This document shows positions 59,634 to 64,000 of a stretch of 64,000 nucleotides of DNA, piece by piece. The stretch is from Escherichia phage vB_EcoM_NBG2. A program made the translations under genes and the position numbers. The DNA lies in the sequence record NC_054925.1; one strand, 5' to 3'. The first letter of the stretch is position 1, and every line of letters begins with the position of its first letter. The notes under the pieces were generated by a model, which saw nothing but the letters and a program-made list of their open reading frames with translations, ran no database searches and had not been told where the DNA came from.

Positions 59634-60413
59634 ATGGCAGTAGTTGGAGTTCCTGGCTGGATTGGAAGTTCAGCCGTAAATGAAACGGGTCAGCGCTGGA
59701 TGAGTCAAGCAGCTGGTCAATTAAGATTGGGTGTTCCTTGCTGGATGAGTCAATTTGCAGGTCGCTCAAGAGAAATTATTCATACACTTGGAGCAGACCA
59801 TAACTTCAATGGTCAATGGTTCCGAGATAGATGTTTTGAGGCAGGTAGTACACCTATAGTGTTTAATATCACTGGAGATTTAGTATCATATTCTAAAGAT
59901 GTTCCTTTATTCTTCATGTACGGAGATACACCGAATGAATATGTTCAGTTGAATATACACGGCGTAACGATGTATGGACGTGGCGGTAATGGCGGTAGCA
60001 ATAGTCCTGGTTCAGCTGGAGGTCATTGTATTCAAAACGATATTGGTGGGAGACTAAGAATTAATAATGGCGGAGCTATTGCTGGAGGCGGCGGTGGCGG
60101 CGGCGGCGGCAACAGGGGTAGACTATCCTTTGGCGGCGGAGGCGGTCGTCCATTTGGCGCTGGTGGGTCTTCCTCTCATATGAGTGCTGGTGCAACCAGC
60201 GGCACTATTTACGCTCCGGGTGCAGGATCTGTCGGTGAGGGGTCTCTTAGTGCATATACAGGCGGGAATGGCGGTGAAGTTGGCTCCGCAGGAGGTAGAT
60301 GTAATACTCACGGTACCGGTACAGAATATGACGGCGGTGCTGCTGGTTATGCCGTCATAGGGTCTACACCGACATGGCAAAATGTTGGAGCAATATATGG
60401 TCCAAGAGTATAA
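59634..60413 (+). CDS. 38: tail fibre tip adhesin gp38 (T2/T6-type, glycine-rich motifs)
   Basis: 259 aa with several poly-Gly motifs separated by short variable segments; unlike the 183-aa T4 gp38 chaperone. Confidence 0.85.
60084..60110 (+). repeat. (GGN)9 codon tract inside gene 38
   Basis: ggaggcggcggtggcggcggcggcggc encoding nine consecutive Gly. Confidence 0.9.
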
Positions 60414-60443: not shown

Positions 60444-61100
60444 ATGGCAGCACCTAGAATATCATTTTCGCCCTCTGATATTCTATTTGGTGTTCTAGAT
60501 CGCTTGTTCAAAGATAATGCTACCGGGAAAGTTCTTGCTTCCCGGGTAGCTGTCGTAATTCTTTTGTTTATAATGGCGATTGTTTGGTATAGGGGAGATA
60601 GTTTCTTTGAGTACTATAAGCAATCAAAGTATGAAACATACAGTGAAATTATTGAAAAGGAAAGAACTGCACGCTTTGAATCTGTCGCCCTGGAACAACT
60701 CCAGATAGTTCATATATCATCTGAGGCAGACTTTAGTGCGGTGTATTCTTTCCGCCCTAAAAACTTAAACTATTTTGTTGATATTATAGCATATGAAGGA
60801 AAATTACCTTCAACAATAAGTGAAAAATCACTTGGAGGATATCCTGTTGATAAAACTATGGATGAATATACAGTTCATTTAAATGGACGTCATTATTATT
60901 CCAACTCAAAATTTGCTTTTTTACCAACTAAAAAGCCTACTCCCGAAATAAACTACATGTACAGTTGTCCATATTTTAATTTGGATAATATCTATGCTGG
61001 AACGATAACCATGTACTGGTATAGAAATGATCATATAAGTAATGACCGCCTTGAATCAATATGTGCTCAGGCGGCCAGAATATTAGGAAGGGCTAAATAA
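60444..61100 (+). CDS. t: holin T
   Basis: 218 aa; single N-terminal TM and large periplasmic domain; sequence recognised as T4 T. Confidence 0.95.
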   Translation: MAAPRISFSPSDILFGVLDRLFKDNATGKVLASRVAVVILLFIMAIVWYRGDSFFEYYKQSKYETYSEIIEKERTARFESVALEQLQIVHISSEADFSAVYSFRPKNLNYFVDIIAYEGKLPSTISEKSLGGYPVDKTMDEYTVHLNGRHYYSNSKFAFLPTKKPTPEINYMYSCPYFNLDNIYAGTITMYWYRNDHISNDRLESICAQAARILGRAK

Positions 61101-61373
61101 TTATTTGTTCGTATACATCTCTAGATATCGATATACACTCTCAAAACCCTCGTTGAATTCGTCGATGAGGGTTTTCTTATCTTCTTGAGTTAATTCAGAA
61201 ACAATTTTACGGAATGAATTCTGATTTAACTTTCTACCTTCATGCGTTACTCCAATCTCATTCAGAAATGCAATAAAATTAGCACGATTTTCAACAATAT
61301 CTTCTCTGGAAAATTTAATCAAAATAGACGCAACAGTAATAATTTCACGAACTGTATCAATGTTTTTATTCAT
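61101..61373 (-). CDS. asiA: anti-sigma70 factor AsiA
   Basis: 90 aa; sequence recognised (MNKNIDTVREIITVASILIKFSREDIVENRANFIAF...). Confidence 0.95.
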   Translation of the reverse strand: MNKNIDTVREIITVASILIKFSREDIVENRANFIAFLNEIGVTHEGRKLNQNSFRKIVSELTQEDKKTLIDEFNEGFESVYRYLEMYTNK

Positions 61374-61382
61374 TAACTATAC

Positions 61383-61538
61383 CACTCAATTAGTTGACTT
61401 TGTTATAATATCATCAGACACTTGATTTGTAAACTGGTCTGTGTTATTTTCTTCAAAAATTTTTTCTACGAATTCCTTGAACGACTCGCGTTCCTGAGCT
61501 ACATTATGCTCGATTACCTTTTCAAGATTATGACTCAT
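61383..61538 (-). CDS. small ORF (51 aa), ATGA-coupled to arn
   Basis: ATG overlaps the arn stop (ATGA); below ORF-track size cutoff. Confidence 0.4.
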
Positions 61539-61813
61539 TCGAAATAATCTTCAATTTCGTAATCATGGACATAAATCATTATAGTTTTTAATACATCATC
61601 AATACTTTTTCCTGGAGCTGGAATTACGTAAAAATATCCTGCTTTTGAGAGGTCTTTATAAGTTCCAATCAAGAAATCATTATTCTCAAGATGTAACTCT
61701 TCAACTAATTCATTGACAATTGAATGGTATAGGTTTGGTAGAAACTTATATAGCTTTTCTAGAATATCAATTTTGATTGTGTATTGAACCACGGACTGAG
61801 AATCAATAATCAT
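61535..61813 (-). CDS. arn: Arn, anti-restriction nuclease (McrBC inhibitor)
   Basis: 92 aa, acidic, position between asiA and motA as in T4. Confidence 0.7.
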   Translation of the reverse strand: MIIDSQSVVQYTIKIDILEKLYKFLPNLYHSIVNELVEELHLENNDFLIGTYKDLSKAGYFYVIPAPGKSIDDVLKTIMIYVHDYEIEDYFE

Positions 61814-61896
61814 AGACCTTCCCCTTATGTTTCTGTTTGCGATTAGATTCTTTAAACGCTTTCTTCTTATCCTTATGAACAGAAGCTTTATTAAAA

Positions 61897-62115
61897 TTAT
61901 GCTTTGCGACTAAATTGTTCATAGTGCTGAATTACCTCTCTTAAACATTTGCATGTGAATGAAAACTTTTTAGCTACACCACATTCAAATATATGTTCTC
62001 TTAAATCGTGTGTATCGGTATATCCCATCTCAACAATAAAATGTCGTATTAGATTTTTATCTTTATCATTGAGAGAATTAAAATAATCAGATTTTGAATT
62101 AATTTCCCTGGCCAA
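61897..62115 (-). CDS. hypothetical protein
   Basis: 72-aa ORF. Confidence 0.5.
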   Translation of the reverse strand: MAREINSKSDYFNSLNDKDKNLIRHFIVEMGYTDTHDLREHIFECGVAKKFSFTCKCLREVIQHYEQFSRKA

Positions 62116-62395
62116 ATTGAATCACCTTCAGTTGACGTTTTAACTCTTTTATCATCTCTTCGTTCATTGCAATATAAAGATCGCGTAGAGCAGGTTTTAG
62201 CATTCCATTTACCGGAGAACTAAATGGACATACATAATCTTTTCCTACGAGCTTTTTGGCGAATTCCATATCGCAGAACTTAAATCCCGGCTCATTGGTA
62301 TAAATTCCCCAATTAGTTGACATCATTTTATTGGCATATTCCAATGCCTGGATTTGATTAGTAATTCCATCAATTTGAAACTTTTTAATATTCAT
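62099..62395 (-). CDS. hypothetical protein
   Basis: 98-aa ORF. Confidence 0.5.
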   Translation of the reverse strand: MNIKKFQIDGITNQIQALEYANKMMSTNWGIYTNEPGFKFCDMEFAKKLVGKDYVCPFSSPVNGMLKPALRDLYIAMNEEMIKELKRQLKVIQFGQGN

Positions 62396-62862
62396 TAGTA
62401 AAGGTCCTCAGAGTAAAGTTCTTTTTCACTACCACCACGTTCAATACGCACTTGTCCAGCGTAAGTTGCAATAATCATTGCTTCTTCACGTGTCCAATAA
62501 TTACTATATTGGTCAATAAATCCTTGGTCTTCACCACAAACATGGTCTGATACAAGTTTATCACTTACCTGGTCAAGAACTTCAGCCATATCTTTAGAAT
62601 AATGACGAGCACCAGGAATAACCAGAGTCCCACCATCTTTTAACTTAAAGCGGTTGGCTGCACACACAATTCGACGTTGATATTTTTCATTATTGTTCCA
62701 ATGAGCTACTTGCCAACAGATTTCAGGAACCTCTTCTAAAACATCCTCTTCCGTATATTCGGTGTAGTCGCCATAGGCCTGTAATTTAGCTGCTAGACTT
62801 TCTGGAGTTTCACGTAATAAAGCCAGGTCTAATAATTCAAGACGCTCTTTGAAGGTTTTCAT
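62395..62862 (-). CDS. hypothetical protein
   Basis: 155-aa ORF, ATGA-coupled on both sides. Confidence 0.55.
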
Positions 62863-63014
62863 TTGGTTTCCTCAACACTTTTAATTTTTATAGCTTGTTT
62901 AGAACTTTCAAAGCATTGACAATATACTCTTACCGCATCAAACTGGTTGGCCGCTTTAAGATGGACTACACCTTCGCCGTTATAAAATTCTACAACAATT
63001 TTAAATGTTTTCAT
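62859..63014 (-). CDS. small ORF (51 aa), ATGA-coupled on both sides
   Basis: [35 protein letters not shown]...; below ORF-track cutoff. Confidence 0.4.
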
Positions 63015-63340
63015 TTAAACCATCCTTTAATACGTTGCCATAAAGTTTTCTGTTGAGCTTTGTTAACACCAATTGAGCGAATAACTGGTTGAGATTCATG
63101 GAATTCTTTATAATCAGCAAGGTAAATTTCGTAAGCTGAATCCATAAAGGAACTTATAGCTGCCATGAAATTATTGCGAATACCTACTGGAGCATCTTTA
63201 CTTTCACGAATAATCATGTATTTACCAGTCTTAATCTTTACAATAGTTCCAAGATAAGCCCCATGGTACCAGATGTCCCATCCCTCTTGAGTGGGTTCTG
63301 CACAACGACGAAGTTCATTGATAATTTCTAACTTGTTCAT
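63011..63340 (-). CDS. hypothetical protein (motA.1-like)
   Basis: 109-aa ORF directly downstream of motA. Confidence 0.55.
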   Translation of the reverse strand: MNKLEIINELRRCAEPTQEGWDIWYHGAYLGTIVKIKTGKYMIIRESKDAPVGIRNNFMAAISSFMDSAYEIYLADYKEFHESQPVIRSIGVNKAQQKTLWQRIKGWFK

Positions 63341-63350
63341 TATTTATTCC

Positions 63351-63986
63351 TCACAGTTCAGATGCTACGGTGATTACTGCTTCAATGTTTTCTGCCGAGC
63401 GTTTAATGTCAAGATACACATTACCGTTTTTAGCGATTTTACATGACATTCCGATATCAGTAAATTTCTGAATATGATGTTCCATCATTTTGTATCCAAA
63501 AATTCGCATATTTCCATTGTTATTAATTTCAAAATTACGAATTCCGTGAGTGCGTTTTTCTAAAATAGCAAGATAGTTACTGCGGTAAGTTTCAACCTTT
63601 TTAAGAACAAATCCATTTTCATCTAAAAGTTTTAACATGAAGTCTTTATCTTCTTCCATATCAGAAGTAATCTCACGAGCTTTACGAGTTGCTCGTTTTT
63701 TCAACAGTTCAGGAGCATTTTCCTGTGCGTATAAAGTTGCTGCATTTGAAATAATATCCTGAGCTTCGCCTGTAATGATTAATCCATCACCAGATTTCTC
63801 CACCAGGCCTTTTTTAATCAATACCCCAATATTACTATTAACTACTGCGTTACCTAAATCTGGATGCACCTCACGAACTTCTGCAGCTGTAATGAAATCT
63901 TTCTTAGCAACAGTAATTAAAATCGCAGCAGTTTTTTCATTCAGAACATCGTTAGAAGCTTTGATGATGTAAGTTACTTTAGACAT
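63351..63986 (-). CDS. motA: MotA, middle-promoter transcription activator
   Basis: 211 aa; sequence recognised as T4 MotA. Confidence 0.95.
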   Translation of the reverse strand: MSKVTYIIKASNDVLNEKTAAILITVAKKDFITAAEVREVHPDLGNAVVNSNIGVLIKKGLVEKSGDGLIITGEAQDIISNAATLYAQENAPELLKKRATRKAREITSDMEEDKDFMLKLLDENGFVLKKVETYRSNYLAILEKRTHGIRNFEINNNGNMRIFGYKMMEHHIQKFTDIGMSCKIAKNGNVYLDIKRSAENIEAVITVASEL

Positions 63987-64000
63987 TTTAATCTCCGTTT

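Follow-up and report, generated by a model that had tools for sequence, protein, structure and literature searches.

The chain of small ORFs between motA and asiA is very probably the known, annotated early "arn" gene cluster of T4-like phages. The window is the whole stretch of DNA that was analysed, 64,000 nucleotides of Escherichia phage vB_EcoM_NBG2 (NC_054925.1). Its minus strand is filled from 63340 to 61386 by eight back-to-back ORFs in the order arn.4, a 51-aa ORF (ORF51), arn.3, arn.2, arn.1, a 39-aa ORF (ORF39), arn and asiA.1. All eight lie head to tail on one strand, and their stops and starts overlap or nearly touch. An earlier sequence-only reading had described the chain at 61383..63014 as ORFs without an assignable function. 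The chain is real, is on the minus strand and lies near that interval, although some details of the description are wrong. The gene arn.4 (63011..63340) is part of the chain yet falls outside the interval. A chain of this kind is textbook T-even genome content, already known and not new, so the observation as first made changes nothing.

The order motA, arn.4, arn.3, arn.2, arn.1, arn, asiA.1, asiA on one strand is that of the T4-type cluster, which is next to the holin gene t, with holin t and gp38 upstream. The upstream flank, motA (63351..63986, minus strand), encodes the activator of middle transcription (Pfam MotA_activ, E=1e-60; MotCF, E=9e-67) and its product is 99% identical to that of PP01/RB32. 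The downstream flank, asiA (61101..61373, minus strand), encodes the anti-sigma-70 factor (Pfam AsiA, E=1.1e-42). Both flanks, and the presence of arn between them, had been recognised correctly from the letters of the DNA. From motA to asiA the window has 98% nucleotide identity to the PP01/RB32 type, and the source is of the T2/RB32/PP01-like Tequatrovirus type. A nucleotide search with the motA-asiA region returns 830 related records, and 1,051 records match the region in another count. Every ORF of the cluster is annotated in RB32/PP01 and most are annotated in T4, so that none is unrecognised. All eight have a PHROG family (E<=2e-23), and orthologues of the cluster are found throughout the Straboviridae. 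In a 2026 preprint on T2, the segment from arn.4 to arn is named the 'arn operon'.

The arn operon region of T4 and T2 has the same genes as the window in the same order and on the same strand, with 94-98% nucleotide identity. It also has the same Arn protein (PDB 3WX4) and the same pairing site for the host sRNA ArcZ at arn.2 +285..+294. The two differ at several points. In the window, arn.4 and arn.3 are separated by an extra ORF, ORF51, that is absent from T4. The Arn.3 proteins of the window and T4 are only 74% identical and have different N-terminal alleles. The start codon of arn.4 is ATG in the window but ATA in the T4 reference, where the gene is annotated with 68 aa only. The T4 reference annotation also lacks ORF39 and gives arn.1 as 43 aa.

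There are nine junctions from motA to asiA, and seven of these overlap. Three are ATGA overlaps (arn.4/ORF51, ORF51/arn.3 and arn/asiA.1), one is a TAATG overlap (arn.3/arn.2) and three are longer, with 17 nt shared by arn.2 and arn.1, 26 nt by arn.1 and ORF39 and 11 nt by ORF39 and arn. The two remaining junctions are short gaps of 10 nt (motA/arn.4) and 12 nt. The statement that most of the ORFs are joined by ATGA was thus too strong, since only three of nine junctions are of this form. The range of 51-155 aa given for the ORFs does not cover ORF39, which is shorter. One of the two 51-aa ORFs that had been listed, 62859..63014, is right; the second, listed as 61383..61538, begins one codon too far at 61383 and corresponds to 61386..61538, with 50 aa and a TGA stop. 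Stops overlap or abut the next starts, which is the geometry of a translationally coupled chain. From this geometry, ribosomes would pass from gene to gene via the overlaps.

All genes of the chain would be read from a single polycistronic transcript, with its start upstream of either motA or arn.4. In T2, RNA-seq in the 2026 preprint identifies one abundant transcript from arn.4 to arn. No terminator-like site occurs on the minus strand inside the chain, and no strict MotA-box middle promoter is matched in 61000..64000. Only 14 nt of the window lie upstream of motA, so the promoters that drive the chain are out of view. The Rfam search gives a sub-threshold REN-SRE match only, inside motA (24 bits against a threshold of 41), which is taken as chance. 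In T4 proteomics, Arn, Arn.1-4 and AsiA.1 are all detected as proteins, with early RNA. The supplementary tables for T4 list arn, arn.2, arn.3 and arn.4 with early RNA and early protein, arn.1 with early RNA and middle protein, and asiA.1 with early RNA and late protein. The single-transcript reading reported for T2 is consistent with these early RNA classes. An absence of translation from the micro-ORFs had been named as one of the grounds for rejecting the earlier reading; for asiA.1, the detection of its product in T4 runs counter to this.

Relative to related phages, dN/dS is approximately 0.02-0.3 for all cluster ORFs except asiA.1, with values of about 0.05-0.25 for arn.2, arn.3 and arn.4. 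These ratios indicate that purifying selection acts on seven of the eight ORFs. Together with the PHROG families, they show by sequence comparison that the ORFs of the chain did not arise by chance. The gene content of the cluster differs between phages, as seen from presence and absence over 14 loci and 12 phages of the BASEL collection. The conserved backbone would consist of arn.4, the arn.3 core, arn.2 and ORF39. The exchangeable parts would be ORF51, arn.1, the arn/asiA.1 pair or its analogues, and the N-terminal module of Arn.3. Other genera have analogues of Arn and AsiA.1. Proteins facing variable host targets typically show such a mixture of backbone and exchangeable parts, which makes small host-takeover or counter-defence factors the most likely identity of the products other than Arn. 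The variable gene content also fits the host-interaction setting suggested by the sequence-only reading, and anti-defence activity beyond Arn is inferred only.

Arn is the only protein of the cluster with an established function. The gene (61535..61813, minus strand) encodes a 92-aa DNA-mimic inhibitor of McrBC and is a clear member of the Arn family, with matches to Pfam DM_Arn (PF22134, E=4.4e-54, 181 bits against a cut-off of 26) and, over residues 1-92, to PDB 3WX4 chain A (E=1.1e-55). Inhibition of McrBC, which cleaves hydroxymethylcytosine DNA, is described in the literature for T4 Arn, and by analogy the Arn of the window, which is 98% identical, would act in the same way. No function is assigned to the non-Arn ORFs by standard libraries, as had been stated before. 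For arn.1, arn.2, arn.3 and arn.4, searches of Pfam, NCBIfam, PDB sequence profiles and PDB structures (Foldseek) yielded no significant function.

The best-surviving alternative, although a rather unlikely one, is that the non-Arn proteins are accessory takeover factors that act on RNA polymerase, ribosomes or mRNA and not on host defences. The cluster is placed between MotA and AsiA, which act jointly on sigma-70, and its RNAs and proteins are early. The conservation of arn.4 is compatible with this alternative. In several genera, arn.4 (109 aa, minus strand, starting 10 nt past the end of motA and preceded by a GAGGA ribosome-binding site) is better conserved than motA, and it is 70-96% identical across genera where MotA drops to 51%, which suggests a conserved host partner. 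By sequence, an arms-race protein fits this pattern less well than one that serves a conserved host machine as a housekeeping partner, which is a point against the preferred reading of the cluster. The gene is found in 14 of the first 14 loci with 35-99% identity, and its dN/dS is 0.04-0.25 with one exception, 0.48 against the 35%-identical JD18. Arn.4 belongs to phrog_1594 (E=6.5e-54), and its homologues carry PF26821. Its AlphaFold2 (AF2) model has a pLDDT of 81, and no PDB relative is found by fold (Foldseek, none below E=0.1) or by sequence profile. The YkuJ-like fold match of Arn.4 is weak, with a TM-score of only about 0.3, and counts against the alternative, as does the failure to find similarity to known polymerase- or ribosome-binding proteins. 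PADLOC also links Arn.4 with a model for a type II restriction enzyme (E=0.0012, 16.7 bits), a hit that is treated as noise.

ORF39 (61803..61922, minus strand; RB32ORF249c) is Lys/Arg-rich and corresponds to Pfam DUF7230 (PF23876; 44.9 bits, above the cut-off of 27), and its homologues carry PF23876.2. It shares with DUF7230 the motif N-x-V-A-K-H..F-N-K-A-x-V-H-K-D-[KR]-K-K..R-K-Q-K-H-K-G and, as a typical short member of this family of small basic phage proteins, does not differ from it. It is present in 14 of the first 14 loci and in 1,195 phage records, with dN/dS of 0.04-0.12 and 49 representative clusters at E<=1e-3. A strongly basic protein of 39 residues that is kept in 1,195 T4-like genomes is as expected of a nucleic-acid or ribosome binder under the takeover alternative. 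A proposed relationship to the ribosome-rescue peptide ArfA fails, with an hhalign probability of 0.5% against E. coli ArfA, and this weighs against the alternative. The ORF39 profile retrieves only eS31 (E=1.5) and not ArfA from PDB sequences that include ArfA, and ORF39 has no PF03889 match at E<=1. Few genes of the cluster are retained as widely as ORF39, but it is absent from the T4 reference annotation, and proteomic and genetic screens that rely on this annotation therefore overlook it.

The reading of the non-Arn products as small host-takeover or counter-defence factors extends to arn.2 and arn.1. The 98-aa arn.2 (62099..62395, minus strand), which follows arn.3 at the TAATG junction, belongs to phrog_1844 (E=2.3e-51), is 37-48% identical in other genera and has a dN/dS of 0.05-0.2. 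A PDB profile search gives nothing significant for either Arn.2 or Arn.1. On comparative grounds, arn.1 (61897..62115, minus strand) is conserved as a 72-aa gene that starts at UUG (TTG), overlaps arn.2 by 17 nt and spans the "70-nt intergenic region" of the T4/T2 annotation. The UUG lies 5 nt downstream of the end of the ribosome-binding site AAGGUGAU. No ribosome-binding site at a suitable spacing precedes the internal ATG at 62028, which would give a short form of 43 aa. An arn.1 ORF of 66-75 aa is conserved in Tequatrovirus (TTG), Mosigvirus and AugustSocin (ATG), Jiaodavirus (GTG) and Kanagawavirus (TTG). JD18 and CIP9 have Leu in place of the internal Met30, the first 29 aa contain 11 of the 27 invariant residues, phrog_4452 covers residues 1-71, and the dN/dS of the long form is 0.02-0.27.

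The ArcZ-complementary site (62102..62111, minus strand; 10 nt, mRNA CCAGGGAAAU) at arn.2 +285..+294 coincides with codons 2-5 of the long arn.1. The plus strand at these positions, ATTTCCCTGG, is identical to ArcZ; the ArcZ sequence used matches 5,417 of 5,426 E. coli genomes with 95-100% identity. The pairing position is reported in the 2026 preprint. If arn.1 is initiated at the UUG, the '70-nt intergenic region' of that study of operon control by ArcZ and RNase E is coding sequence, and the ArcZ site would fall on the arn.1 initiation region. If T2 shares the sequence of the window, the RNase E-site mutation of the study would also alter two conserved Arn.1 residues.

The most specific lead in the cluster is arn.3 (62395..62862, minus strand; 155 aa), whose product appears to join a variable two-helix module, similar to the N-terminal end of the antitoxin CmdA, to a conserved, enzyme-like, phage-only domain. 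The module comprises residues 1-33 (62764..62862), which match positions 1-33 of 77 of the PADLOC profile PD-T4-9_B (CmdA) with E=3.3e-6. The same profile is matched by 12 of 40 Arn.3 homologues (best E=2.5e-10). AF2 predicts helices at residues 4-16 and 20-29; profile and model together give Arn.3 a two-helix module like the toxin-binding one of CmdA. The core comprises residues 48-155 (62395..62721 with the stop codon; PF26092). Among 40 homologues, its invariant residues are R63, A68, A69, R71, R86, H87, Y88, Q113, G114, F115, D117, Y122, R125 and the C-terminal SEDLY. The AF2 model has a pLDDT of 87, with values above 90 over the core. No PDB fold below E=0.1 (Foldseek) and no PDB sequence is matched by the core, and its fold is seen in approximately 20 stand-alone phage proteins at E<1e-3 (BFVD).

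Two helices are predicted at the N-terminus of Arn.3, as at that of CmdA, and the proteins differ thereafter. CmdA has a disordered C-terminal chaperone-addiction region with an Ala-Ala ClpXP degron, whereas in Arn.3 positions 34-77 of PD-T4-9_B are unmatched and the chain continues after the module into a folded, conserved domain of 108 residues that ends in SEDLY. The cmdA gene lies between those of an ADP-ribosyltransferase toxin and a SecB-like chaperone; arn.3 adjoins ORF51/arn.4 and arn.2 with no CmdT or SecB-like gene nearby. There is no A or C component of PD-T4-9 among the eight ORFs according to PADLOC. CmdTAC is found in a P2-like prophage, unlike arn.3, which is in a lytic phage. 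In BFVD, the Arn.3 core model also has segment matches to three entries named 'large polyvalent protein associated domain-containing protein' (E=7e-4 to 2.5e-2), with TM-scores of only about 0.35. Polyvalent proteins occur in phages and conjugative elements, and comparative genomics links them to counter-defence. They are large and multi-domain, whereas Arn.3 is small and stand-alone, and no Pfam LPD family matches it.

A role for Arn.3, perhaps together with ORF51, in countering toxin-antitoxin-chaperone defences of the CmdTAC type is improbable. Under this alternative, the CmdA-like module would bind CmdT, the mRNA ADP-ribosyltransferase toxin, once the true antitoxin is degraded, and the conserved core would serve as an effector or stabilising body. 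CmdTAC is PD-T4-9, an anti-T-even defence in which CmdA is encoded by the second gene and places its N-terminal helices on CmdT. The Arn.3 module matches the profile of these toxin-contacting helices. The likeness is a profile match, and Arn.3 lacks the addiction tail and degron. A scan of bacterial genome contigs with ETPESL[AG][AI][KH] gives no CmdA relative, and neither does tblastn of the module against plasmids and against phages outside the T4-likes.

All Tevenvirinae of the BASEL collection are restricted by CmdTAC except Bas35 and Bas38. The unrestricted Bas35 has the Arn.3 allele of the window, apart from one residue, and alone among the 12 phages carries ORF51; Bas38 has a private N-terminal allele. 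The T4-type allele is found in eight other BASEL Tequatrovirus phages and T4, all of which are sensitive. However, the probability that both resistant phages are by chance among the four without the T4-type allele is approximately 6/66 = 0.09, in a comparison of the motA-asiA cluster only, and published escape mutants are in alt.-3, not arn.3. The Arn.3 N-termini of Bas36 and Bas46 are as CmdA-like as that of the window, yet both phages are restricted, and CmdA-likeness alone is therefore rejected as a rule for resistance. That Arn.3 is a modular counter-defence protein whose N-terminal alleles, perhaps with ORF51, decide the escape of T-even phages from a CmdTAC-like, mRNA ADP-ribosylating defence would be a long shot. 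The CmdA-like module may still give a direct experimental handle on the CmdTAC escape of some T-even phages.

Proteins that act on the host remain the preferred reading for the chain, and an unlikely alternative concerns asiA.1 (61386..61538, minus strand) alone. Under this alternative, asiA.1 is not a functional protein gene, and the ORF is kept for the asiA promoter and ribosome-binding region and the arn end in its DNA. A sigma-70-type promoter-like site (61405..61433, minus strand; TTTACA, 17 nt, TATTAT, with TG) is within asiA.1 and upstream of asiA. It has 10 of 12 consensus matches and is a consensus match only, because the regional count of such sites is not above that in shuffled sequence. 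Substitutions are too few to show codon-level selection: relatives share 97-99.5% identity over the region, third codon positions account for only 5 of 12 variable sites, which is no clear positional bias, and dN/dS is 0.07-0.88. The frame is broken in phage a15 by a one-base insertion in an A-run, and the gene is confined to the T4/T2-type Tequatrovirus group. Against these points, AsiA.1 is listed as detected in the T4 proteome, and the ORF is intact in 483 records (phrog_3762, E=2e-37). In addition, the same-position ORFs of four other genera (Mosigvirus, Gaprivervirus, Jiaodavirus and Shigella phage A2) all begin with MSHNLE and then diverge, which is the pattern of a fast-evolving protein.

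ORF51 (62859..63014, minus strand; RB32ORF252c) has an ATGA overlap at both ends and belongs to phrog_15636 (E=1.9e-40). It is present in 84 phage records, compared with the 1,051 that match the region, and from this distribution it is a sporadic cassette gene. It occurs in four genera at differing positions. In Dhakavirus QL01 it is 90% identical, with 9 synonymous and 4 non-synonymous changes (dN/dS 0.08), and homologues at 53% identity in both Marfavirus and Gelderlandvirus STP4-a are at other positions of the same cluster. A fusion of an ORF51-like domain to the Arn.3 core in the homologue P0040 or in EK29 ORF59 is unsupported (E=9.7 and 0.12). Two direct repeat copies, identical at 15 of 17 positions with a spacing of 152 nt (repeat search, family D3), border ORF51. 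The first (63000..63016, TTTAAATGTTTTCATTT) spans the ORF51 start and the arn.4 stop, and the second (62848..62864, TTTGAAGGTTTTCATTT) spans the arn.3 start and the ORF51 stop. ORF51 and Arn.3 both start with MKTFK. Recombination between the copies would excise ORF51 exactly and leave arn.4-ATGA-arn.3. The junction sequences of phages that lack ORF51 are part of the evidence for this arrangement.

The minus-strand block between motA and asiA, the arn gene cluster, holds eight small ORFs. In transcription order, motA (63986..63351) is followed by arn.4 (63340..63011, 109 aa), ORF51 (63014..62859, 51 aa), arn.3 (62862..62395, 155 aa), arn.2 (62395..62099, 98 aa), arn.1 (62115..61897, 72 aa from TTG), ORF39 (61922..61803, 39 aa), arn (61813..61535, 92 aa), asiA.1 (61538..61386 including TGA, 50 aa) and finally asiA (61373..61101), all on the minus strand. 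The region is 98.3% identical to PP01 and 97.7% identical to RB32, and megablast and blastn give 830 and 1,051 matching phage records, respectively. Annotations for all eight ORFs exist in RB32 and/or PP01, and for most of them in T4. The sequence-only reading, which described a chain of ATGA-coupled small ORFs at 61383-63014, is essentially right about their existence and approximate position, and the cluster is already known, annotated and partly characterised. The by-products of the analysis are annotation-level corrections and one testable hypothesis. The first micro-ORF had been given as 51 aa at 61383..61538, which runs one codon too far, and ORF39 falls below the 51-155 aa range assigned to the six further ORFs. 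The ATGA overlaps said to join most genes occur at three of the nine junctions from motA to asiA (arn.4/ORF51, ORF51/arn.3 and arn/asiA.1). One further junction is TAATG, three overlap by more (17, 26 and 11 nt) and the remaining two leave gaps of 10 and 12 nt. Most cluster genes are preceded by a Shine-Dalgarno-like sequence, which is GAGGA for arn.4, arn.3 and arn.2, AAGGGGAAGG for arn and AAGGTGAT for arn.1, the last ending 5 nt before the TTG. The proposed host-interaction setting is reasonable, but it is proven for Arn alone.

Each of the eight ORFs matches a PHROG family (E<=2e-23). Nei-Gojobori dN/dS values, calculated for the window against 24 related loci, are 0.05-0.25 for arn.2, arn.3 and arn.4, 0.02-0.27 for the long arn.1, 0.04-0.12 for ORF39 (against Mosigvirus and Dhakavirus) and 0.08 for ORF51 against Dhakavirus QL01 (nine synonymous and four non-synonymous changes). 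In published T4 time-course omics, Arn, Arn.2, Arn.3 and Arn.4 are early as both RNA and protein, and Arn.1 is early as RNA and middle as protein. Neither ORF51, which T4 lacks, nor ORF39, which is unannotated there, could be scored in these data.

Absence of micro-ORF translation, named in the sequence-only reading as what would refute it, is already contradicted for asiA.1, as AsiA.1 is among the proteins detected in the supplementary tables of the T4 omics study. Selection on asiA.1 cannot be judged because its relatives differ at just 12 sites, five of them third codon positions. In four other genera, the ORFs that occupy this position have the N-terminus MSHNLE in common and differ beyond it; this and the detection in T4 are in favour of asiA.1 as a gene. 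Within asiA.1, at 61405-61433 (-), there is a sigma-70-type promoter-like site (TTTACA-17 nt-TATTAT with TG) placed to drive asiA, and overlap with it may be the source of the low synonymous divergence. In phage a15 (compared locus L024, about 2500-2610), one additional A in a homopolymer run shifts the asiA.1 frame, which is either a sequencing error or a sign that the gene is dispensable.

ORF39 scores above the Pfam DUF7230 threshold (44.9 bits vs 27) and is present in all 14 of the first loci compared, with ATG, GTG or TTG starts. Its tblastn matches span 1,195 phage records, RB43-, KP27-, CC31- and Aeromonas-type phages among them, which places it with the cluster's most broadly retained genes. 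The T4 copy is 100% identical and unannotated (NC_000866 161580..161699, minus strand; L003 2081-2200), and screens that rely on the T4 reference annotation miss it. Among 1.84 billion representative proteins, a profile search recovers 49 clusters with the motif N-[FL]-V-A-K-H..F-N-[KR]-A-x-V-H-x-D-[KR]-K-K...R-K-x-K-H-K-G. The charge of the protein suggests that it may bind nucleic acids or ribosomes. A proposed relationship to the ribosome-rescue factor ArfA failed when tested.

Judged from sequence conservation, arn.1 is longer than its T4/T2 annotation, being a conserved gene of 72 aa that starts at UUG. Its frame stays open from the TTG at 62115, and the same ORF, 66-75 aa long, is found in T4 (TTG), Mosigvirus and AugustSocin (ATG), Jiaodavirus JD18 (GTG) and Kanagawavirus CIP9 (TTG). 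JD18 and CIP9 have Leu in place of the internal Met that starts the 43-aa annotation, and no spaced ribosome-binding site was found in the window sequence for that ATG at 62028. An alignment of five genera has 27 invariant residues, 11 of which, including the motif YFNS-N, lie within the first 29, and the phrog_4452 match spans residues 1-71. According to a 2026 preprint on T2, the host sRNA ArcZ base-pairs at arn.2 +285..+294, and an RNase E site, located in a 70-nt intergenic region, lies 11 nt before the arn.1 ATG. The window has the 10-nt ArcZ site at 62111..62102 (minus strand; mRNA CCAGGGAAAU), the complement of ArcZ AUUUCCCUGG; of 5,426 E. coli genomes, 5,417 matched the ArcZ sequence used, with 95-100% identity. 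This site corresponds to codons 2-5 of the long arn.1, immediately past the UUG, and the T4/T2 intergenic region corresponds to codons 6-29. The RNase E motif lies on the conserved Arn.1 R24-H25-F26 codons (CGA CAU UUU). If the T2 sequence equals that of the window, the AUU-to-AGG RNase E-site mutation of the preprint would alter His25 and Phe26.

Arn.4 homologues match PF26821 and are 70-96% identical across genera where MotA falls to 51%. A search of the PDB with the Arn.4 model (pLDDT 81) found no relative. In the T4 reference, the arn.4 start is ATA, not ATG (L003 3455-3457; window 63338-63340), and the gene is annotated as 68 aa from an internal ATG. The 41 upstream codons are intact and differ from the window mostly synonymously; the explanation is either non-canonical initiation in T4 or a mutated start codon in the laboratory strain. 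For Arn.2, neither relatives outside T4-like phages nor a PDB match were detected. In genera without a recognisable arn, acidic proteins of 86-104 aa occupy its position (L005 771-1070, L007 1200-1478, L012 941-1207 and L022 4093-4353). They end in a [DE]-Y-x-[IL]-x-D-Y motif, as T4 Arn does (...HDYEIEDYFE), and may be divergent Arn-like DNA mimics.

ORF51 is found in just 84 records. Its position in RB32/PP01-type Tequatrovirus is between arn.4 and arn.3, as it is in Dhakavirus QL01, where it is 90% identical and the flanking genes are 82-95% identical. A homologue lies directly 3' of motA in Marfavirus (53% identity) and in Gelderlandvirus STP4-a. ORF51 is bracketed by a 17-nt direct repeat (62848-62864 and 63000-63016; 15/17 identical, 152 nt apart) because ORF51 and arn.3 share the start MKTFK. 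Recombination between the repeats would delete ORF51 exactly, which is consistent with its patchy distribution, and the repeat could plausibly allow the cassette to be gained or lost precisely. In Dhakavirus and Gaprivervirus, the arn.4-arn.3 slot holds a 112-115 aa ORF that begins MIPMEL[DN]WDGEG (L009 2060-2407, L010 2060-2398 and L011 2513-2851). By eye, the same stretch opens the N-terminal extension of several Arn.3 homologues (P0021, P0023 and P0108), which suggests possible module fusion and fission upstream of the Arn.3 core.

Across 40 Arn.3 homologues, the core has invariant R63, A68, A69, R71, R86-H87-Y88, Q113-G114-F115, D117, Y122, R125 and a C-terminal SEDLY. The homologues carry PF26092. 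The AF2 model is confident (pLDDT 87); in the PDB it has no fold match below E=0.1 and no sequence match, and within BFVD about 20 unrelated phage proteins (E<1e-3) and three 'large polyvalent protein' entries share the fold. Arn.3 has a variable N-terminus, of which residues 1-33 in the window are two predicted helices that match positions 1-33 of the 77 in the PADLOC profile PD-T4-9_B (E=3.3e-6). This profile matches 12 of the 40 homologues, from 2.5e-10 at best to 0.009 for the T4 allele. PD-T4-9 is the toxin-antitoxin-chaperone defence CmdTAC, and its second gene encodes the antitoxin CmdA. Arn.3 has the N-terminal module in common with CmdA but is not a CmdA, having neither the disordered tail and degron nor toxin and chaperone genes as neighbours.

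According to a 2024 Nature paper, Bas35 and Bas38 are the only two of the 12 BASEL Tevenvirinae that CmdTAC does not restrict. In a comparison of the motA-asiA cluster across Bas35 to Bas46, Bas35 (WilhelmHis, L025 4377-4996) has the Arn.3 of the window with one residue different and is the sole one of the 12 with ORF51. Bas38 (AugustSocin, L004 1637-2101) has a private Arn.3 allele, with the stretch YTxYTEEDVL in common with Bas35. In this small sample, then, each escaper carries a private Arn.3 N-terminus, and the T4-type allele is confined to restricted phages (Bas37, Bas39-45 and T4). It is nevertheless unlikely that the Arn.3 allele underlies the escape of Bas35 and Bas38. Bas36 and Bas46 are restricted despite other MK[TS]FKERL-type alleles that are equally CmdA-like, and the published CmdTAC escape mutations are located in alt.-3. 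By chance, both escapers would fall among the four phages lacking the T4-type allele with a probability of about 0.09, in a comparison that covers the cluster only. The association is a long-shot lead, not a result.

On the plus strand, the last 4 kb of the window carries gp37, gp38 and the holin gene t ahead of the minus-strand block. The gp38 gene (59634-60413) encodes a 259-aa glycine-rich adhesin of the T2 type (Pfam GP38, E=5.7e-70), not a T4-type chaperone, and the window therefore derives from a T2/T6/RB32-like phage. A 14-bp hairpin followed by a T-rich tract (61143-61175, plus strand) lies 43 nt past the t stop codon; it resembles a terminator for t and falls within the asiA coding sequence, at the 3' end of that convergent gene.
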